Origin: Clostridia bacterium
GTDB taxonomy: Bacteria > Bacillota > Clostridia > TANB77 > CAG-508
Direction: 5' to 3'
Assembly (NCBI GenBank): GCA_022797215.1
Contig: JAAWKD010000002.1
Coordinates: 13 to 64,012, forward strand
Length of the DNA: 64,000 bases
Of this stretch, positions 5,039-18,410 are shown one piece after another (positions within the stretch are counted from its first letter, which is position 1; the number at the start of each line of letters is the position of its first letter). The notes beneath the pieces were generated by a model that ran no database searches, was not told where the DNA came from, and saw only the letters and a list, made by a program, of their open reading frames with translations. A program made the position numbers and the translations under genes.

Positions 5039-5097
5039 AGTAGAATGATTTTAAATAAAAAATAAATCAATTTTTATGAAAGAAAGGAAGAAAAAAT

Positions 5098-6342
5098 ATG
5101 GGATTATTTAAAGCAGCAAAAGATGCTATAGGAGGAACCTTAGCTGATCAATGGAAAGAGGCTATTCGTTGTGATGACATGTCGAATAATGTATTAATGG
5201 TAAAGAAAACAACTCCAAATGGAGTAATTAGCAACAAAAGTACCATTATTGTAGCACCAGGACAATGTGCCGTTATTTTTGATAATGGTAAGGTTATTGA
5301 TGCAACAGCAGAAGAAGGATTTTATCAATTTGATAGTTCAACATCTCCATCTTTTTTTGCAGGAGATTTTGGCAAAACTTTTAAAGAAATGTGGGAAAGG
5401 TTTACATACAATGGAGCAACAGCTAAACAACAAGCTGTATTCTTCTTTAATACAAAGGAAATATTAGATAATAAGTTTGGAACACCTGCACCAATTCCAT
5501 TCCAAGATTGGTCACATCCAATTCCAAATCAAATGACGAATACCTTAACACCAATGAGAGTAGAAATTAAATGTTTTGGAAAATATACATTTAAGATTAG
5601 TAATCCAGCAGTATTTATGCAAGAAATAGCGGGAACAGCAGATAGATATACAAAAGAACAAATTGTAGAACAAATGCGTGCAGAAGTTATCGCAGTGTTC
5701 CAAAACTTAATCAATGAATTAGGTTCTGAAAGACATAAAGTTCCTGTGCTTGAAATGCCAAGTCAAACAGATGAAATTAGAACTATGATGGATGAAATGG
5801 TATTTGATGAGCAGGTTAGAAGAAGAGGAATTTCGATTGTATGTTTTGCAGTTGAATCAGTAACACTTGATGAAGAATCAGAAGCAAAAATTGATAATTA
5901 TGAGTTTAGTTCAAATGCGCATTTACAACAAGGAAGATTAGTAGATGCTTATGCAGAAGCGGTTCAAAAAGCTGCTGAAAACAAAAGTGGTTCTATTAAT
6001 GGCTTTATGGGAATTGGTATGATGAATATGGCAACTAATGGAATGACAAGTGGAGCTGCAAATGGTCCTTGGCAGAATGCACAAAATAGCCAAATGGATT
6101 TAAGCAAGCAAAATATAGAAAATGCACCAAAAACAACAGAAGAACAAATGAAAGTTGCAATGGTAGGCAAAGTAGAAGATACAGAGTGGACTTGTGAATG
6201 TGGTTCAAAAAATAATGGAAAATTCTGTGGAAATTGTGGAAAAGCAAAGCCAACGCAAGATAAAAAACAATGTCCAAATTGCAAAGCAATGAGTGATAAA
6301 AATGCAAAATTCTGTGGTGAGTGTGGAACAAAACTTGACTAA
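5098..6342 (+). CDS. SPFH/virion-core-like domain protein with C-terminal double zinc ribbon
   Basis: 414 aa. The N-terminal 280 aa resemble SPFH-like YdjI-type proteins. The C-terminus has CECGSKNNGKFCGNCG and CPNCKAMSDKNAKFCGECG. Confidence 0.6.
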   Translation: MGLFKAAKDAIGGTLADQWKEAIRCDDMSNNVLMVKKTTPNGVISNKSTIIVAPGQCAVIFDNGKVIDATAEEGFYQFDSSTSPSFFAGDFGKTFKEMWERFTYNGATAKQQAVFFFNTKEILDNKFGTPAPIPFQDWSHPIPNQMTNTLTPMRVEIKCFGKYTFKISNPAVFMQEIAGTADRYTKEQIVEQMRAEVIAVFQNLINELGSERHKVPVLEMPSQTDEIRTMMDEMVFDEQVRRRGISIVCFAVESVTLDEESEAKIDNYEFSSNAHLQQGRLVDAYAEAVQKAAENKSGSINGFMGIGMMNMATNGMTSGAANGPWQNAQNSQMDLSKQNIENAPKTTEEQMKVAMVGKVEDTEWTCECGSKNNGKFCGNCGKAKPTQDKKQCPNCKAMSDKNAKFCGECGTKLD

Positions 6343-7579: not shown

Positions 7580-7634
7580 TTGACAAACAGAAAAAAGAGA
7601 GTATAATAAAACTATAGGTCAAAGAAAGTCAAAG
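7580..7634 (+). promoter_or_regulatory. SigA-type promoter plus CtsR operator of the ctsR operon
   Basis: TTGACA (7580-7585), 16 nt, TATAAT (7602-7607). Directly followed by the tandem heptad GGTCAAAGAAAGTCAAAG (7617-7634), which matches the CtsR box consensus (A/G)GTCAAANAN(A/G)GTCAAA. Confidence 0.8.
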
Positions 7635-7669: not shown

Positions 7670-8119
7670 TTGAGAATATCGGATATTATAGAAGAATTTA
7701 TCAAAGAAATGTTTTCAGAAGATGACTCTATTGAAATTCAAAGAAATGATTTAGCAGAGTACTTTAATTGTGTACCATCTCAAATCAATTATGTAATAGC
7801 AACAAGGTTCAAGCCATCACAAGGATATTATGTAGAAAGCAAGCGTGGTGGTGGAGGACATATTAAGATTACAAAAGTCAATATTACCAAAAGTAATTAT
7901 TTAATGCATGCAATTAGTAGTATTGATAATAAGATTACAGCACAAGAGGTAGACATTTTCATCAGTAATTTCTTATCAGAGGGCATTATTTCTGAAACAG
8001 AGGCGAAACTTTTAAAAGTAGCAACAAGTGATAATGTCTTAATTGTACCACAAGAGATAAAAGATATGCTAAGAGCAAATATCTTAAAAAATATGTTAAT
8101 TAATTTAGTAGAAGATTAG
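7670..8119 (+). CDS. ctsR: Class III stress gene repressor CtsR
   Basis: TTG start. RISDIIEEFIKEMF... and the glycine-rich loop KRGGGGHIKI are CtsR hallmarks. First gene of the ctsR-mcsA-mcsB-clpC order. Confidence 0.9.
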   Translation: MRISDIIEEFIKEMFSEDDSIEIQRNDLAEYFNCVPSQINYVIATRFKPSQGYYVESKRGGGGHIKITKVNITKSNYLMHAISSIDNKITAQEVDIFISNFLSEGIISETEAKLLKVATSDNVLIVPQEIKDMLRANILKNMLINLVED

Positions 8120-8132
8120 GAGGTTGATAGTT

Positions 8133-8699
8133 ATGTTATGTCAAAATTGTGGAAAAAATGAAGTGAATTTTCGTTATACACAAATTATTAATGGGGTAAA
8201 AAAGGAGATGGCACTTTGCGATAAATGTGCTAAAAGTTTAGGATTAGAAAGTTTGGATTTTAATATGCCAATTAACTTTTCTAACTTTTTAGGAGACTTT
8301 TTAAATGTAGCAGCAGATGCAGACATTTTGCCTAGTTTTACAAAAACAGGAGTATTGCAATGCAATGAATGTGGAATGACATACAATGAATTTGTAGATA
8401 CTGGTAAATTTGGATGTAGACATTGCTATGATATTTTTGCAAATGTATTAGACCCTGTACTTAAAAATATTCATGGTTCTAGTAATCATGTAGGAAGGAG
8501 AAGCAGGTTATCAGCAAGTGAGAAAAAGAAAGTAGCTCAAGATGTGCAGCAAGCACATAAGAAGGCTACAAAAGCAGTAAAGAAAGATGAAAAACAAGAA
8601 AAAATAGATAAATTAAATGAGGAATTGAAGCAAGCAATCAAAGAAGAACGATATGAAGATGCAGCAAAGTTAAGAGACGAAATTAAGAAGTTGTGTTAG
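8133..8699 (+). CDS. mcsA: Protein arginine kinase activator McsA
   Basis: Two CxxC zinc-finger pairs (CQNCGK...CDKCAK; CNECG...CRHC) and a C-terminal UVR motif EERYEDAAKLRDEIKKL. ATG at 8133 behind TAGGAGG. Confidence 0.85.
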   Translation: MLCQNCGKNEVNFRYTQIINGVKKEMALCDKCAKSLGLESLDFNMPINFSNFLGDFLNVAADADILPSFTKTGVLQCNECGMTYNEFVDTGKFGCRHCYDIFANVLDPVLKNIHGSSNHVGRRSRLSASEKKKVAQDVQQAHKKATKAVKKDEKQEKIDKLNEELKQAIKEERYEDAAKLRDEIKKLC

Positions 8700-8801: not shown

Positions 8802-9818
8802 ATGCAAAATTGGTATTTACAAAATGGAAAAGATTCAGATGTAGTCATTAGTTCTAGAGTAAGACTTGCTAGGAATTTAGAAGAAATTCCATTTCCAACA
8901 AAATATTCTAAAGAACAAGCAAAAAGGGTACTAGAAAAGGTAAAAGAAATTGCACCAAGTATTGGATATGGAATTAAATATATGGAGTTAAACGATTTTG
9001 ATGATATCACCAAAGTAAGTTTAGTAGAAAAACATGTGATTAGTCCAGAGTTTGCTATGAATAAGATGAAAACAGGAGCAATTCTTTTAAATGATGAAGA
9101 AAATATATGCATGATGATTAATGAAGAAGATCACTTACATATGCAAGTATTTGCATCAGGTTTAGAATTAGAAAATTTGAAAAATTTAGCCATTGAATTA
9201 GATGAAAAACTAGACAAGTTATTAAACTATGCTACTCATGAAAAATATGGTTATTTAACTTCATGTCCAACTAATGTAGGGACAGCTATGAGGGCATCTG
9301 TTATGGTACATTTACCTGCTTTAACAATGACAGGGAATATCGGAAAAATCTTTAATATTGTAAATGGATTTGGCATGAATATTCGAGGAATCTATGGAGA
9401 AGGAACACAAAGTCAAGGCGAATTTTATCAGATTTCTAACAAACAATCATTAGGAATTACAGAAAATGATATTATTAAGAACTTAAATATTATTATTGAA
9501 AAGGTAATAGAACAAGAGAGGATGGCAAGAAAGTATTTAGCGAAAAATTCTATTGATTTAGAAGATAGAGTATATCGTGCTTATGGAACACTTGCTTATG
9601 CTACAAAACTTTCATCAGATGAGTGCAAAAAGCTATTATCTTTTGTAAAATTAGGTACAGATTTGGGAATTATTAAAGAATTGAATGATAGTAAAATATC
9701 AAAATTGTATTTATATAACCAACCAGCTAATTTGCAAAAATATGTGGGAAAACCATTAGATGGATATGAACGTGAGATTAAAAGGCCAGAAGTAGTGAAA
9801 GAGATAATACAAAGTTAG
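8802..9818 (+). CDS. mcsB: Protein arginine kinase McsB
   Basis: ATP:guanido phosphotransferase signature CPTNVGTAMRASVMVHLPAL. 338 aa, positioned between mcsA and clpC. Confidence 0.92.
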   Translation: MQNWYLQNGKDSDVVISSRVRLARNLEEIPFPTKYSKEQAKRVLEKVKEIAPSIGYGIKYMELNDFDDITKVSLVEKHVISPEFAMNKMKTGAILLNDEENICMMINEEDHLHMQVFASGLELENLKNLAIELDEKLDKLLNYATHEKYGYLTSCPTNVGTAMRASVMVHLPALTMTGNIGKIFNIVNGFGMNIRGIYGEGTQSQGEFYQISNKQSLGITENDIIKNLNIIIEKVIEQERMARKYLAKNSIDLEDRVYRAYGTLAYATKLSSDECKKLLSFVKLGTDLGIIKELNDSKISKLYLYNQPANLQKYVGKPLDGYEREIKRPEVVKEIIQS

Positions 9819-10184: not shown

Positions 10185-12635
10185 ATGATGTATAAATTTA
10201 CAGGTCGTAGTGAAAAAGCATTAGAACTTGCAGCAGAGCTTGCAGCCGAATTTGGTCATAATTACATAGGAACAGAACACATCCTATATGGCTTAACTAA
10301 AGAAGGCACAGGCGTTGCTAGCAAAGTGCTAGAATTACAAGATATTACTGCAGATAAAATTGCAGAAGAAATAGAAATCCTAATTGGTAGAGGGGAAGAA
10401 ATAGAAGATGTCGCAGACATTGGATTTACTCCTCGTAGTAAGAGAATTATTGAAAATGCTTTTATTGAAGCAAGAAAATTAGGTTCAGAATTTATAGGAA
10501 CAGAGCATTTATTAATTGGAATTATGCGTGAAGGGGATAGTGTGGCAGTTCGTATTATGATGGACTTAAAAGCTGATCCACAAAAGTTATATAATGAAAT
10601 TATCAAAGTAATTAATGAAGAAGATAATACGGCAATCAATGCAAAACAGACAAAGAGTAAGGCACGTGGAAGCTACAATCAAACACCAACATTAAATCAA
10701 TTTGGAACTGATTTAACAAAACGTGCACAAGAGGGAAAGCTAGACCCAGTTATTGGTAGGAAAGAAGAAATTGAAAGAGTAATTCAAATTCTATCAAGAA
10801 GAACGAAAAATAATCCATGTTTAATAGGAGAGCCAGGTGTTGGTAAAACAGCAGTAGTAGAAGGATTAGCAGAAAAAATTGTGGCAGAAGATGTTCCTGA
10901 AATGTTAAAAAGTAAAAGAGTAGTTAGTTTAGATATTGCTAGTATGGTAGCAGGGGCGAAATATCGTGGAGACTTTGAAGAAAGAATTAAAAAATGCTTA
11001 GAAGAAGTTAAAAAGGCAGGAGATGTCATCCTATTTATCGATGAAGTTCATACAATTGTAGGGGCAGGCTCAGCAGAAGGTGCAGTAGATGCAGCTAATA
11101 TTCTAAAACCATTATTAGCAAGAGGAGAGGTACAAGTAATTGGAGCTACTACTTTAAATGAATATCGTAAGTATATTGAAAAGGATAGTGCATTAGAAAG
11201 AAGATTTAGTCCAGTTAATGTAGGAGAGCCATCTTTTGAAGAAACCATTCAAATTTTAAAAGGAATTCGTGATAAATATGAAGCACATCATAATGTAAAG
11301 ATTACAGATGATGCAATTAAGTCATCTGTGGAGTTATCTACTAGATATATTAATGATAGATTTTTGCCTGATAAAGCAATTGATTTAGTAGATGAAGCGG
11401 CTTCTCGTGTAAAAATGAGGATTTATACACAACCAGAGTCTATTAAAAAATTGGAAGATAAGATTATAGAACTAGACAAAGAGAAAGAAGATGCTATTCG
11501 TTCACAAGATTTTGAAAAGGCAGCAAAACTTCGTGATAAAGTAAAAGAAGAAAAAGAAAAGTTAGCAAAAGAAAAGGAAAAATGGCGTAACAAAAATACA
11601 AAGAGTGTAACAACTTTAACAGAAGAAGATATTGCAGAAGTGGTATCTAGTTGGACTGGTGTGCCAGTTCAAAAATTAACACAAAGTGAAAATGAAAAAT
11701 TAAAGAATTTAGAAACTATTTTACATCAAAGAGTAGTAGGACAAAATGAAGCAATAGAAGCAATTGCAAAAGCAATTAGAAGAGGAAGAGTAGGATTAAA
11801 AGACCCTAATCGTCCAATTGGTTCTTTCCTATTCTTAGGTCCAACTGGTGTAGGAAAAACAGAACTTTCTAAAGCATTAGCAGAAGCCTTATTTGGTAAT
11901 GAGAATGCAATGATACGTGTAGATATGTCTGAATATATGGAGCCACATTCCATTTCCAAATTAATTGGTTCGCCTCCAGGATATGTAGGATTTGATGAAG
12001 GTGGACAATTAACAGAGAAGATTAGAAGAAAGCCATATTCTGTTATCCTATTTGATGAAGTAGAAAAGGCACATCCTGATGTTATGAATATGTTACTCCA
12101 GATTTTAGATGATGGAAGATTAACAGATGCACAAGGTAGAACAGTAAACTTCAAAAATACAGTTATTATTATGACGTCTAACATTGGTGCTAGAATGATT
12201 ACTGACAAGAATACATTAGGATTTAGTATTAGCACAAATCAAAAAGAAGAAGCACAAAAAGAATATGAAAATATTAAAAAAGATGTTATGGGAGAACTTA
12301 AAAAGCAATTTAGACCAGAATTTATTAACCGTATTGATGAAATTATTGTATTCCATAAACTAACAGATGAAGATGTTAAACAAATTATTGAAATTATGTT
12401 AAATCAATTACAAAAACGTATGAAAGAACAAAATATTGAATTAGAAATTGATGAAAGTGTAAAAGATTTAATTGCAAAAAAAGGAGTAGATACCAATTAT
12501 GGTGCAAGACCATTGAAAAGAGCAATTCAAAGTGTACTAGAAGATAGAATTGCAGAAGAGATTTTAGATGGAAAAATTAAGCCAAATCAAAAGGCAAAGG
12601 TGTTATCTAAAGAGGAAGAAGTTGTTGTGGAATAA
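10185..12635 (+). CDS. clpC: ATP-dependent Clp protease ATP-binding subunit ClpC
   Basis: Clp N-repeats; two AAA+ modules ([18 protein letters not shown]; DEVH / FDEVEKAH); UVR-like linker [12 protein letters not shown]. 816 aa. Confidence 0.95.
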
Positions 12636-12679: not shown

Positions 12680-13172
12680 TTGACAAATGAAAAATAGGAG
12701 AGTATAATAAAAAACATAGTCACCCACAGGGTGCAAAAATACTTCCAGTAAGGAAGAATACATTGAAAAGGAGAGAATAGCTTATGCGATGTCGGAACAG
12801 CTTTTTTGTGAAGATTGCGAAAAAGATGTGACCTGCACCGGCCGCCGCCGGCAATAGCCAGCCATCGTTTTGAGGAAAAGGAGGGCAAAATATGCCTCGG
12901 TTTCCAGGTGGTTTCCTGTAGCCCCTTCGGGGGCCAAGAAAAACAGCTAAAAAAATCATGTATTTCCGCCAGATATAAGGGGCCGTCTAGAGCGCTGATG
13001 CGCTAAGAGGATGTATGCCCACGCAAATGTCAGCGGAAGAAAGGTGAGTGCAACATGCCGAAACGGTTTCCGAGCGGATTCCTGTAGCCCCTTCGGGGGG
13101 CTAAGAAGAACAACAGACCCAAGCTATATCTCGAAAAACGGGCGCCCTATTTGGGGCGCCCGAGTCTTTTTT
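12680..13172 (+). ncRNA. Unclassified GC-rich structured transcript with two paralogous mini-ORFs
   Basis: TTGACA (12680-12685), 17 nt, TATAAT (12703-12708). About 450 nt of roughly 50% GC in a roughly 30% GC genome, with many short GC hairpins. Duplicated approx 75-nt module. Strong terminator CGGGCGCCC...GGGCGCCCG + T-run (13139-13172). No long ORF with an RBS. Confidence 0.55.
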
Positions 13173-13213: not shown

Positions 13214-14071
13214 TTAGATTGGTTCTACATGAACAATCGCACGATAAATTTTATCTAGTCCAGAAACACTTAATTCTAATTGATCAGCTAATTCATGACT
13301 TTTGAAGGTACTCATATTTCCATCTACATAAATGGTTAATACAACAACATATTGATGCCCAACAGGAGTAGAAGAAATCTCATCTACATTTTGAATTTCC
13401 TTGTAATTATGTGCTAAATCCATAATAATTTCTTTTGTCTTTTCATCAATTGAAATATCCATTAAAATGTTATAACTTTCCATAAAGATTTTTGCGCCTG
13501 TTAAACAAATCCAAATAGAAATTCCAATTCCTACAATACCATCAAACCAGTAAATATTGGCGAACGTAAGTAAAATAGAGATTAAAGTAAATGTTGTTAC
13601 AATACAATCATTACGATGGTCATTTCGATTAGCTTCTAGTAAAATATTTTCAAACTTTTTAGCTAAGCGATTGGTATATAAGAATAAAGCTAGTTTAACA
13701 ACGATTGTAATAAGGCAAACAATTACTAAAAACCAAGAAAAGATTAATTCACTTCCATAAATTAGAGTATAGATAGAATCATAAAGTAGTTTAAAAGCAA
13801 TAACTATCATAGAAATACTAATAAACATAGAAAAAATATACTCAGCTTTTCCATGACCAAAATTATGACTTTTATCTTGTGGCTCACTAGCAATTTTGTT
13901 ACCAATAAAGGTCATTAAAGAAGCAAAAATATCACCAGCACTGTTTGCGCTATCCGCAATCATTGACTGGCTCTTAAAAAGGAAACCTACAGTTCCTTTG
14001 ATAATTAATAAAAATAAATTCCCCAAAATTCCCAATAACCCTGCTTTTTTTGTTTGTTCAAAGCGATTCAT
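13214..14071 (-). CDS. Cation diffusion facilitator family transporter
   Basis: Six TM helices; SMIADSANSAGD and HNFGHGKAEY motifs; C-terminal cytoplasmic domain. 285 aa. Confidence 0.9.
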   Translation of the reverse strand: MNRFEQTKKAGLLGILGNLFLLIIKGTVGFLFKSQSMIADSANSAGDIFASLMTFIGNKIASEPQDKSHNFGHGKAEYIFSMFISISMIVIAFKLLYDSIYTLIYGSELIFSWFLVIVCLITIVVKLALFLYTNRLAKKFENILLEANRNDHRNDCIVTTFTLISILLTFANIYWFDGIVGIGISIWICLTGAKIFMESYNILMDISIDEKTKEIIMDLAHNYKEIQNVDEISSTPVGHQYVVVLTIYVDGNMSTFKSHELADQLELSVSGLDKIYRAIVHVEPI

Positions 14072-14236: not shown

Positions 14237-14698
14237 ATGTTTTGTAATAAATGTGGAAAAGAAATAAATGGAGATTCAATATTTTGTAATTATTGTGGAA
14301 ATAAATTAAAAACTGAAGAAACAAGACAAGAAAATGCTAAACCAAATTTGAAAGAAGAGATAAAAGAAGCTTGGAAAAGTGGACCAGAGAGGGCAGAAAA
14401 GGAGAGACGTGAAAAAGAACAAAGAGAATATTTAAAGCAATTGAAAGAAACAAAAGAAGAAGTACAGAAAAATTTAAAACCAAAAGATGGAAAATATCAT
14501 GTTGTGTTGATAAAGAGTAAGGCTAGATATTTGACAGGATATAAAATATGTGATAATCAATATGCTATTGAATTAGAGGATATATTGGAAATGATACAAA
14601 GTAAAGGATATGAAATAATAGATGTAAAAATGATAGGGATAGAAGAAGGTTCTGCATATGGTACGACCAGAGTAGAAACATTAGTGATGTATAAGTAG
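14237..14698 (+). CDS. Zinc-ribbon domain protein
   Basis: N-terminal CNKCGK...CNYCGN ribbon, a charged helical linker and a small C-terminal domain. Confidence 0.55.
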   Translation: MFCNKCGKEINGDSIFCNYCGNKLKTEETRQENAKPNLKEEIKEAWKSGPERAEKERREKEQREYLKQLKETKEEVQKNLKPKDGKYHVVLIKSKARYLTGYKICDNQYAIELEDILEMIQSKGYEIIDVKMIGIEEGSAYGTTRVETLVMYK

Positions 14699-17644: not shown

Positions 17645-17992
17645 ATGATAAAAAGAATTTTAGTTGGTCTAATAGCAGGAGTGATTAGTGGATTGTTCAC
17701 CGCAGGTGGAGGTTTAATTATTGTGCCTGCTTTATTATACACTTTAAAAATGGAAGCTAAAAAGGCAAGAGCCACCTCATTATTTTGTATTTTACCAATG
17801 GTACTAGTGACAACTATTTTTTATGGGCAAAGCAATTTTATTAGATGGGATATTGGTATTAGATGTGCAATTGGAGGAATAATAGGGGGAATAATAGGGG
17901 CGAGGCTACTTAATTATTTACCAGAAAAGTATTTAAAGGTTGCTTTTACATTATTTCTCATCTATGCAGGAATCAATATGATAGTTAAGTAA
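17645..17992 (+). CDS. Half-size TSUP (TauE/SafE) family membrane protein
   Basis: 4-TM unit with GLIAGVISGLFTAGGGLIIVPALL, the TSUP glycine-rich first helix. Confidence 0.7.
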   Translation: MIKRILVGLIAGVISGLFTAGGGLIIVPALLYTLKMEAKKARATSLFCILPMVLVTTIFYGQSNFIRWDIGIRCAIGGIIGGIIGARLLNYLPEKYLKVAFTLFLIYAGINMIVK

Positions 17993-18007: not shown

Positions 18008-18410
18008 ATGATAGAATTAGTAATAGGTTTAATTTCTGGAATAATCAGTCGGAATGGGAATGGGAGGAGGAACAATTTTAATCCTCCTTCTTTCTATTTT
18101 TATGCAAGTAGACCAACATGTAGCTCAAGCAACTAATCTTGTGTTTTTTATTCCGACGGCAGTTGGTGCTATTATTATTGGAATAAAAAATAAAAATATA
18201 CAATGGAAGCTAGCTATACCCATTATTTTATCAGGAATAGTAGGAGCAGCTATTAGTAGTAGCATTAGCACTCATATTAATGTACAATTATTAAGGAAAC
18301 TATTTGGAACTTTTTTACTAGTAATTGCAAGTTTTGAAATATATTCGTGGTATAAAATGTATATTAAAGAAAAAAATAAGCATACTAACAAAGAGAACAA
18401 AATTAAATAA
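18008..18410 (+). pseudogene. Second half-size TSUP family protein, +1 frameshift at codon 15
   Basis: ATG at 18008 behind AAGGAAG gives MIELVIGLISGIIS. The paralogous continuation GMGMGGGTILILLL... is in the +1 frame from 18051. The frameshift is confined to 18045-18053. Confidence 0.65.

Follow-up and report, generated by a model that had tools for sequence, protein, structure and literature searches.

In the 64,000-nucleotide (nt) stretch of a Clostridia contig analyzed here, which we call the window, a GC-rich element at 12680-13172 lies between clpC and a convergent cation-efflux gene of the cation-diffusion-facilitator (CDF) type. With moderate confidence, we read this locus as a stand-alone, strongly promoted, structured polycistronic mRNA that would encode peptides of 9-13 residues, all belonging to one paralogous family. 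The predicted peptides probably represent a new family of ultra-short bacterial peptides; no known family was matched. We observed transcription signals, lineage-specific presence, copy-number variation, codon-level conservation, and conserved helices, and from this sequence evidence we infer production of the RNA, translation of its miniature open reading frames (mini-ORFs), and action of the peptides in trans.

Transcription unit, mini-ORFs, and RNA structure

Our comparisons include ten distinct versions of the element, seven of which are complete. Labels of the form L### designate individual loci or contigs, and labels of the form P#### designate variants of the CDF protein. The features that define the unit in the window, including the Shine-Dalgarno (SD) sequence of the second mini-ORF, are as follows:

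12680..12708, + strand: sigma-70 promoter, TTGACA-17 nt-TATAAT (12/12 matches, best in the scanned region)
12892..12921, + strand: mini-ORF 1 (type B), MPRFPGGFL*, from strain comparison
13040..13048, + strand: SD of mini-ORF 2 (AAAGGUGAG)
13055..13087, + strand: mini-ORF 2 (type C), MPKRFPSGFL*, from strain comparison
13139..13172, + strand: intrinsic terminator, 10-bp GC stem plus U-run

The promoter, the terminator, and the island of about 50% GC between them had been named in the original prediction, and all three are present. Transcription is predicted to start at ~12714-12716. Across all variants the -10 box is unchanged, and the -35 box reads TTGACA or TTGGCA. The interval 12716-13172 (~457 nt) has a GC content of 0.499 compared with 0.285 for the 64-kb window, in which no other 200-nt stretch reaches 44% GC. 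The terminator (stem 13139-13162, T-run to 13172) reads as a terminator on the minus strand too; this bidirectional signal also stands 3' of the convergent CDF gene. In L137 and L139, another terminator sequence occupies the equivalent position.

Within the unit, a 36-nt direct repeat (12898-12933 and 13064-13099, 89% identical) is the core of a duplicated module whose similarity extends to ~75 nt with one 3-nt in-frame indel, in agreement with the duplication first proposed. Tandem Repeats Finder did not report this two-copy repeat, because there are just two diverged copies. Rfam 15 gave no matches in the whole window at the gathering score; a confident Rfam hit, one ground for rejection named in the original prediction, thus did not arise, and the element still fits none of the known RNA classes, as had been suspected; at E<=10, the matches were terminator-driven or trivial, the best being ncr1575 on the minus strand (31 bits against a gathering score of 60). 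ARAGORN found no tRNA or tmRNA in the window, and gene callers called zero genes in the clpC-CDF interval.

Both mini-ORFs had been predicted together with an SD for each, and both are borne out: the SD of mini-ORF 1 is GGAGG at 12880-12884, and in each case the SD lies 7 nt before the ATG. The claim that their coding pattern exceeds chance depends on the ten strain variants, since two copies in one sequence would be insufficient. These variants provided 14 distinct mini-ORF nucleotide sequences, all related and from one lineage. The peptides fall into four types (MRRYPTGFK/L; MPRFPGGFL and MPRFTSGFL/V; MPRFPTGFQ, MPKRFPSGFL, MPKRFTSGFL, MLKRFPSGFL, and (MH)MLRFPSGFKSA; and MRICVSGFL and MRIYVSGFL), with lengths of 9-10 residues (11-13 in one variant), a C-terminal residue of L, V, K, Q, or A, and the shared core (M)-x-(K)-R/I-[F/Y/C]-[P/T/V]-[G/S/T]-G-F-[L/V/K/Q].

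None of the 14 sequences has lost its purine-rich SD (4-10 nt upstream), its ATG, or its frame, so homologs do conserve the mini-ORF frames, whose loss the original prediction had named as grounds for rejecting it. The TAG is in place in 13 of 14; in the remaining sequence (C9), a 6-nt in-frame insertion moves it two codons later. Indels within the mini-ORFs are solely in-frame (AAA, TCAGCG, and an upstream ATGCAC extension). Gly-Phe is constant as amino acids, while GGT/GGA and TTC/TTT swaps occur on many tree edges, never at positions 1-2. On a minimum spanning tree of the 14 sequences, we counted 19 synonymous and 20 nonsynonymous codon changes, where 27% synonymous would be expected from random single-base changes (binomial p=0.003), and third positions hold 22 of the 46 nucleotide changes (p=0.03). 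Among differing codon pairs, 36% are synonymous in the ORF frame versus 6% and 22% in the two shifted frames. The last module copy of L088 (L088c) has lost the hairpin that follows the stop codon, and its ORF, MPRFPTGFQ*, is intact. The peptide-level constraint originally suspected from two copies is thus upheld by the synonymous excess and the conserved frames, and we conclude from these substitution patterns that the peptide sequence, at least in its C-terminal half, is under purifying selection.

The mini-ORFs are composed largely of codons that are rare in the host. The first Arg codon, at codon 2-4, is CGG in every mini-ORF, and CGG accounts for only 2 of 530 Arg codons in 44 window genes (0.13 per thousand codons), making it the rarest Arg codon of the host. 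CUG makes up 17 of 1387 Leu codons in the window genes, and CCG, CCC, and CGC are also rare. CGG has no synonymous variants, whereas the Pro, Gly, Thr, Ser, and Phe codons do.

The plus strand folds more stably than shuffled sequence (z=-3.84), and the predicted helices are listed here:

12721..12733, + strand: 5'-proximal hairpin 1, CACCC-ACA-GGGTG
12742..12756, + strand: hairpin 2, CUUCC-loop-GGAAG (stem invariant; loops AGUAA, GUUAA, GGUAA, GAAA)
12838..12851, + strand: GC hairpin CCGGC-CGCC-GCCGG after the candidate ORF0 described below (variants CCGGCGGCCGCCGG and CCGGCGGGCGCCGG)
12872..12909, + strand: SD-sequestering hairpin of module B (minimum-free-energy folds, six type-B variants)
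12921..12934, + strand: post-ORF hairpin GCCCC-UUCG-GGGGC, starting at the G of TAG
12963..13039, + strand: inter-ORF spacer hairpin, closed by UUUCCGC/GCGGAAG, with inner hairpin GCGC-UGAU-GCGC
13087..13101, + strand: post-ORF hairpin GCCCC-UUCG-GGGGGC, starting at the G of TAG

Hairpin 1 is likely a 5' stabilizer. In L088 it has a TTGCC/GGTAA stem, in which three pairs are altered on both sides with pairing retained, and its loop and stem vary also in L117 and L137. The spacer hairpin has 23 pairs, with 96% of cells paired compared with 35-60% when the partners are slid; four pairs show compensatory changes, and 25 of 500 shuffles reach the observed covariation score. In the module-B hairpin, GGAAA pairs with UUUCC (codons 4-5), and GAGGGCA, which includes the SD, pairs with UGCCUC (the start codon and codons 2-3). 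The outer stem in L088b is GUGAA/UUUAC, and L001b likewise refolds with changed bases. Nothing else in the element is as well conserved as this 50-nt module-B segment, in which 48-50 of 50 nt match L117, L123, L137, and L139; the ORF0 region and the spacer are 57-69% and 77-78% identical, respectively, in the most distant variants. Modules of types A, C, and D do not form the type-B hairpin.

The original prediction had each TAG running into a UUCG hairpin. The overlap of TAG and stem holds. Conservation covers the GCCCC/GGGGC stem but not the UUCG loop (loops UUCG, CUCG, UUCA, UUG, CUUG, and CGAUA occur), and the hairpin is missing in L088c, where it is evidently dispensable, and in type-A copies. 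Altogether, these comparisons indicate that the element combines a structured RNA with mini-ORFs under selection.

A third ORF had also been proposed, at 12789..12857. We call the region that contains it ORF0:

12784..12857, + strand: ORF0 region, with two overlapping candidate frames
12784-12831, + strand: ORF0 frame 1, MRCRNSFFVKIAKKM*, with the better SD spacing
12789-12857, + strand: ORF0 frame 2, MSEQLFCEDCEKDVTCTGRRRQ* (MSEQLF...), the ORF originally proposed

Frame 2 is open in seven of eight variants, its start being lost in L137. In frame 1 we see some synonymous Arg/Ser changes as well as indels that preserve the frame, yet L001 has a stop as its second codon (ATG TGA). ORF0 is the least conserved segment (57-69% identical to L123/L137/L139), and no codon periodicity was found at its variable sites, counted by eye. 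With a rival overlapping frame, each frame dead in one variant, and low conservation, the third ORF is unsupported; its coding is doubtful, and we do not count it as a gene. A larger unannotated protein gene on either strand was also rejected, as the longest ORFs vary in frame, length, and sequence among variants.

Distribution and copy number among relatives

The host is an uncultured gut member of the Clostridia. ClpC identity is 86% for its closest species representative and 72% for Clostridium sp. CAG:452. We grouped the related loci by CDF protein variant, with identities measured against the CDF protein of the window:

Window CDF protein (100%): L001-L004, intergenic 578-660 nt, element present
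P0005 (98%): L108-L116, intergenic 411 or 833 nt, element present
P0014 (97%): L088-L097, intergenic 634 nt, element present
P0033 (96%): L117-L122, intergenic 670 nt, element present
P0021 (96%): L137-L140, intergenic 576 nt, element present
P0036 (95%): L123-L131, intergenic 598 nt, element present
P0031 (95%): L098-L103, intergenic 53 nt, element absent
P0045 (94%): L104-L107, intergenic 55 nt, element absent
P0052 (87%): L132-L136, intergenic 118 nt, element absent

All carriers encode a CDF protein at least 95% identical to that of the window. The sister lineages P0031 and P0045 (94-95%) have no element, and their clpC-CDF interval consists of an AT-rich bidirectional terminator alone. 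The 220-nt interval of L005 (86% ClpC identity) has no element, and neither a homolog nor a GC island was found 3' of clpC in 80 species. A profile hidden Markov model of 13 modules recovered only the window's two copies and nothing in ~98 loci of other species or lineages. No match to the element was obtained by blastn against plasmids and phages or by three pattern scans of viral contigs (0 matches). An exact-protein look-up with ClpC also returned nothing. The degenerate peptide pattern CGGTTYMCNRGNGGNTTYSTGTAG gave three matches in Joint Genome Institute (JGI) metagenomes, all in high-GC DNA without an SD, which we judged to be chance. The sole match outside the lineage with an ATG, ATGCGGTTTACGAGTGGGTTTGTGTAG (MRFTSGFV*) at 5082-5108 on the minus strand of the high-GC JGI contig L087, has neither SD nor flanking similarity and is probably a chance match.

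The history is most simply explained if the ancestor of the carriers gained the element, since it is missing from the outgroups. The original prediction had raised the possibility of a new class of small RNA (sRNA). The element does remain unclassified, but it is a lineage-specific insertion rather than a widespread RNA class. As a separate observation, the clpC-CDF interval is swapped wholesale between close lineages (53-55 nt in L098-L107, 118 nt in L132, 220 nt in L005, and 411-833 nt in carriers), and the final ClpC codons vary as well (...EEVVVE* against ...NETLLIQ*).

Copy number differs among carriers: one module in L108 and L113, two in the window, L123, L137, and L139, three in L001, L088, and L117, and four in L109. 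The repeat unit is ~165 nt and comprises SD, mini-ORF, stop-codon hairpin, and spacer hairpin. By alignment, one-copy L108 is a clean deletion between both stop-codon hairpins, and four-copy L109 is a duplication of one ~165-nt unit; therefore, copy number shifts by recombination between units. In L001 (1513-2172, minus strand), and also in L109, a short ORF, ATGCCTAGGTCCAGCTGA (MPRSS*), lies 5' of the first intact module and looks like a decayed copy of an MPRF... module with a 2-nt deletion.

Competing explanations and known systems

Under our preferred reading, a transcript of ~457 nt in the window and ~290-705 nt in other strains would carry each copy as its own cistron with SD, ATG, and TAG. 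The array would expand and contract between one and four copies via recombination of ~165-nt units, which would tune dosage. The 5' hairpins and the GC hairpins would shield the transcript and insulate the cistrons, and initiation would be limited, or made conditional, by the type-B hairpin, in which the SD pairs with codons 2-5. We propose only tentatively that an unprocessed, leaderless peptide would act in trans as a small signal or effector. More speculative still, and in our estimation a slim prospect, is a new class of unprocessed ultra-short peptides, made in bulk from a variable tandem array on a self-stabilizing RNA, that would serve as diffusible effectors of a gut bacterium. Such effectors may include host-directed mimics: the last four residues of the commonest peptide, GGFL, are also those of Leu-enkephalin (YGGFL), and the core R-x-P-G-(G)-F recalls bradykinin (RPPGF...). 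By analogy, they may also modulate the adjoining Clp machinery. The ClpP-docking loop motif is (L/I/V)-G-F; in the ClpC of this locus (10185-12635) the loop is TLGFS, which resembles the invariant x-G-F of the mini-peptides, minus the hydrophobic first residue.

Genes of nine or ten codons escape gene callers, and here comparative sequence points to purifying selection on such genes. To our knowledge, very few functional genes of this length have been described (MccA, SIP and other leaderless communication peptides [LCPs], and a handful of leader peptides). The locus is unusual in the extreme shortness of its genes, tandem copy-number variation, rare codons, and restriction to one uncultured gut Clostridia lineage. 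If the peptides are made, it would offer a compact natural system for initiation and termination on minimal ORFs within stable RNA structure, a test of functional rare-codon (CGG) use, and a candidate new bacterial peptide signal or effector. It also suggests that GC-rich intergenic islands of AT-rich genomes are not always non-coding RNAs.

Several points weigh against this reading. The analysis is of sequence only, so that transcript and peptides alike are predicted, and the sample of 14 related sequences from one lineage gives modest statistics (p=0.003). Even the most diverged strains share 96-100% identity over the type-B segment (50 nt, SD hairpin plus ORF), synonymous sites included. 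Part of the apparent P-R-F-P conservation in type B may come from RNA pairing, since CCUC is the pairing partner of the SD and UUUCC that of GGAAA. The invariant CGG hints at a constraint at the nucleotide or decoding level; either pairing constrains its bases, or the mechanism makes use of slow decoding. Over the 13 kb upstream and the 22 kb downstream, we found no gene for a partner (receptor, transporter, or modifying enzyme) among the ORFs scanned. Finally, we know of few proven trans functions for peptides so short.

The invariant CGG is the main support for an alternative in which translation acts in cis only: the act of translating, or the nascent chain, would govern the fate of the RNA or ribosome through, for example, a pause at the rare codon, arrest at the stop codon, with melting of the hairpin that adjoins it, or eviction of a drug bound in the tunnel, and the free peptide would have no role. 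Besides CGG at codon 2-4 of every copy (2 of 530 Arg codons in the window genes), this explanation draws on the stop codon, where the base pairing of a GC hairpin begins in most copies, on the sequestered SD of type B, and on a consensus promoter and multiple copies that fit a need for many ribosome visits. A chain of 9-10 residues would, moreover, stay wholly within the upper ribosome tunnel. Against drug eviction, the evicting peptides that we know of are 4-6 residues long. Ribosome-arresting leader peptides are known, such as ErmDL (MTHSMRLR-FPTL..; PMC8298421) and MsrDL, a short leader controlling msrD (PMC10314930), and RFPT/LRFPS in L088c and L117c resembles ErmDL residues 8-11. However, the mini-ORFs lack the +X+ arrest motif (K-R and R-R are adjacent), the transcript holds no downstream gene, ending in a strong terminator before a convergent gene, and the ORF is retained where the hairpin is lost (L088c) or absent (type A). 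We therefore rejected an ErmDL-like arrest peptide, for which the resemblance comes to four or five residues with no +X+ motif and no downstream gene, and we consider a purely cis-acting role unlikely. We rate as still less likely a non-coding structured sRNA that acts by base pairing or protein binding, with mini-ORFs as by-products of purine-rich or GC-rich motifs. It would account for a fold that beats shuffles (z=-3.84), for the compensatory changes in hairpin 1 and the spacer hairpin (four pairs, 96% paired), for a GC content of 50% upheld in surroundings of 28.5% across the divergence of the clade, and for type-B modules conserved at synonymous sites too. It would not account for the periodic substitutions, in which Gly and Phe codons vary solely at third positions, for the synonymous excess (p=0.003; 36% in the ORF frame versus 6% and 22% shifted), or for mini-ORF indels that are all in-frame. 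Nor would it explain why SD, ATG, and frame persist in 14 of 14 sequences, including paralogs with other flanking structure, and why L088c keeps its ORF despite the hairpin deletion.

Peptides of the LCP/SIP type would leave the cell unprocessed, return through an oligopeptide permease, and be sensed by a distant Rgg/RopB-type tetratricopeptide-repeat (TPR) regulator, with the variants as pherotypes. LCPs are mostly 8-10 residues long, with an SD and without a leader, and some have charged, polar, or Pro residues (PMC10518010); the mini-ORFs fit in size, SD, and lack of a leader, and both peptide sequence and copy number vary among close strains, as signaling codes would. Yet a Pfam scan of most of the longer ORFs at 0.4-35.6 kb found housekeeping functions and no Rgg/RopB-type regulator with helix-turn-helix (HTH) or TPR domains, no peptide exporter, and no peptide-modifying enzyme; thus, no HTH/TPR regulator is among the window genes scanned over 0-35 kb. 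In addition, the peptides are not hydrophobic, containing R/K, P, and G, several different peptides per transcript is not an LCP trait, and LCP systems have been reported from Lactobacillales, Bacillaceae, and Staphylococcaceae and not from Clostridia (PMC10518010), all of which makes this assignment quite improbable. The least credible explanation is that the element is a non-functional recent acquisition, either foreign GC-rich DNA or a leader remnant whose gene was lost, now drifting unselected. In favor of drift, the element is a lineage-restricted orphan (no homolog 3' of clpC in 80 species or in JGI metagenomes, viral contigs, plasmids, or phages), its codon usage is foreign to the host, its copy number is unstable, and its ORF0 region decays freely. 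But the -10 box, the 5' hairpins, module B, and a terminator persist in all complete variants, despite the terminator replacement in L137/L139, and the compensatory helix changes, the synonymous excess in the ORFs, and a GC content without decay towards the host level leave very little room for it.

We compared the predicted peptide mRNA with known systems. The staphylococcal psm-alpha operon has four tandem phenol-soluble modulin (PSM) genes on one short transcript, and PSMs are amphipathic helices of 20-44 residues. The likeness is in a small stand-alone transcript with tandem paralogous peptide genes, each with an SD, no signal peptides, and lineage specificity; in contrast, the peptides here have 9-13 residues with Pro/Gly, are incapable of such helices, and have no Pmt-type exporter seen nearby. 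Dual-function sRNAs such as RNAIII/hld, SR1/SR1P, SgrS/SgrT, and psm-mec encode one peptide of 22-43 residues and have base-pairing targets that have been shown. Like them, the element stands alone as a structured RNA, has a promoter and a terminator of its own, and carries a short ORF, but it has one to four copies of a 9-10-residue ORF, and a base-pairing role is putative.

The LCP/RopB systems (PMC10518010) likewise have ultra-short ORFs (8-10 codons) with their own SD, no leader or signal, and sequences that vary among close relatives, and the mini-ORFs share these features (9-10 residues, one of 11-13; SD 4-10 nt upstream; no leader). They differ in having no adjacent Rgg/RopB receptor, in being tandem paralogs on one structured GC-rich transcript in a Clostridia host, and in encoding basic, Pro/Gly-rich peptides (all copies with Arg, some with Lys), while LCPs are, with rare exceptions, chiefly aliphatic or aromatic and hydrophobic (PMC10518010). 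The 7-codon microcin C precursor gene mccA is followed by a hairpin (PMC4231749, PMC6495379). The similarity lies in a gene of fewer than ten codons with an SD, a stable hairpin directly after it, and an interplay of ribosome occupancy and RNA structure on a short abundant transcript. Unlike the peptides here, MccA ends in Asn, and mccA precedes mccB-E; no ThiF/MccB-like gene was found near the element, and its hairpin has no U-tract and its copies are tandem and variable. Macrolide-sensing leaders (ErmDL MTHSMRLRFPTLNQ, MsrDL; PMC8298421, PMC10314930) share short SD-bearing ORFs beside hairpins and, locally, RFPT/LRFPS, but the element has no regulated downstream gene, ~50% GC, and no +X+ in its mini-ORFs. 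An R-C-R of this type (Arg/Lys-X-Arg/Lys) is confined to ORF0 frame 1, in four of the eight variants examined. The locus is thus filed under none of LCP, psm-alpha, mccA, dual-function sRNA, or erm-type leader, as the defining feature of each is lacking. As to its broad kind, our verdict from these comparisons is that it would be a bacterial micropeptide or dual-function RNA locus.

Genomic neighborhood

Upstream of the element is the class III heat-shock operon, and downstream is the convergent CDF gene:

7670-8119, same strand, upstream: ctsR, class III heat-shock operon
8124-8699, same strand, upstream: mcsA, class III heat-shock operon
8802-9818, same strand, upstream: mcsB, class III heat-shock operon
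10185-12635, same strand, upstream: clpC, class III heat-shock operon
13214-14071, convergent, downstream: CDF transporter

A perfect CtsR operator (GGTCAAAGAAAGTCAAA) at 7617-7633, just 5' of ctsR, is the sole site in the window with no mismatch and, as expected, fits an autoregulated ctsR-mcsA-mcsB-clpC operon. Control of the element by CtsR was rejected, as the operator (RGTCAAANANRGTCAAA) is absent near the promoter at 12680-12708.

Past the CDF gene lie genes for a zinc-ribbon protein, a small unknown protein, and a class-V aminotransferase (cysteine desulfurase-like). Not every relative has the zinc-ribbon gene (14237-14698): L098-L107 and L123-L131 lack it, L109/L111 have two small ORFs in its place, and L137 carries it in duplicated or split form. 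The gene and the element do not strictly co-occur. Farther downstream, the TauE/SafE sulfite-exporter profile is split over two adjacent short ORFs, with 17645-17992 matching profile positions 130-237 and 18054-18410 matching positions 16-110. Each ORF covers half of the profile and their order is reversed, which could reflect either two genes of half size or the rearrangement of one gene.

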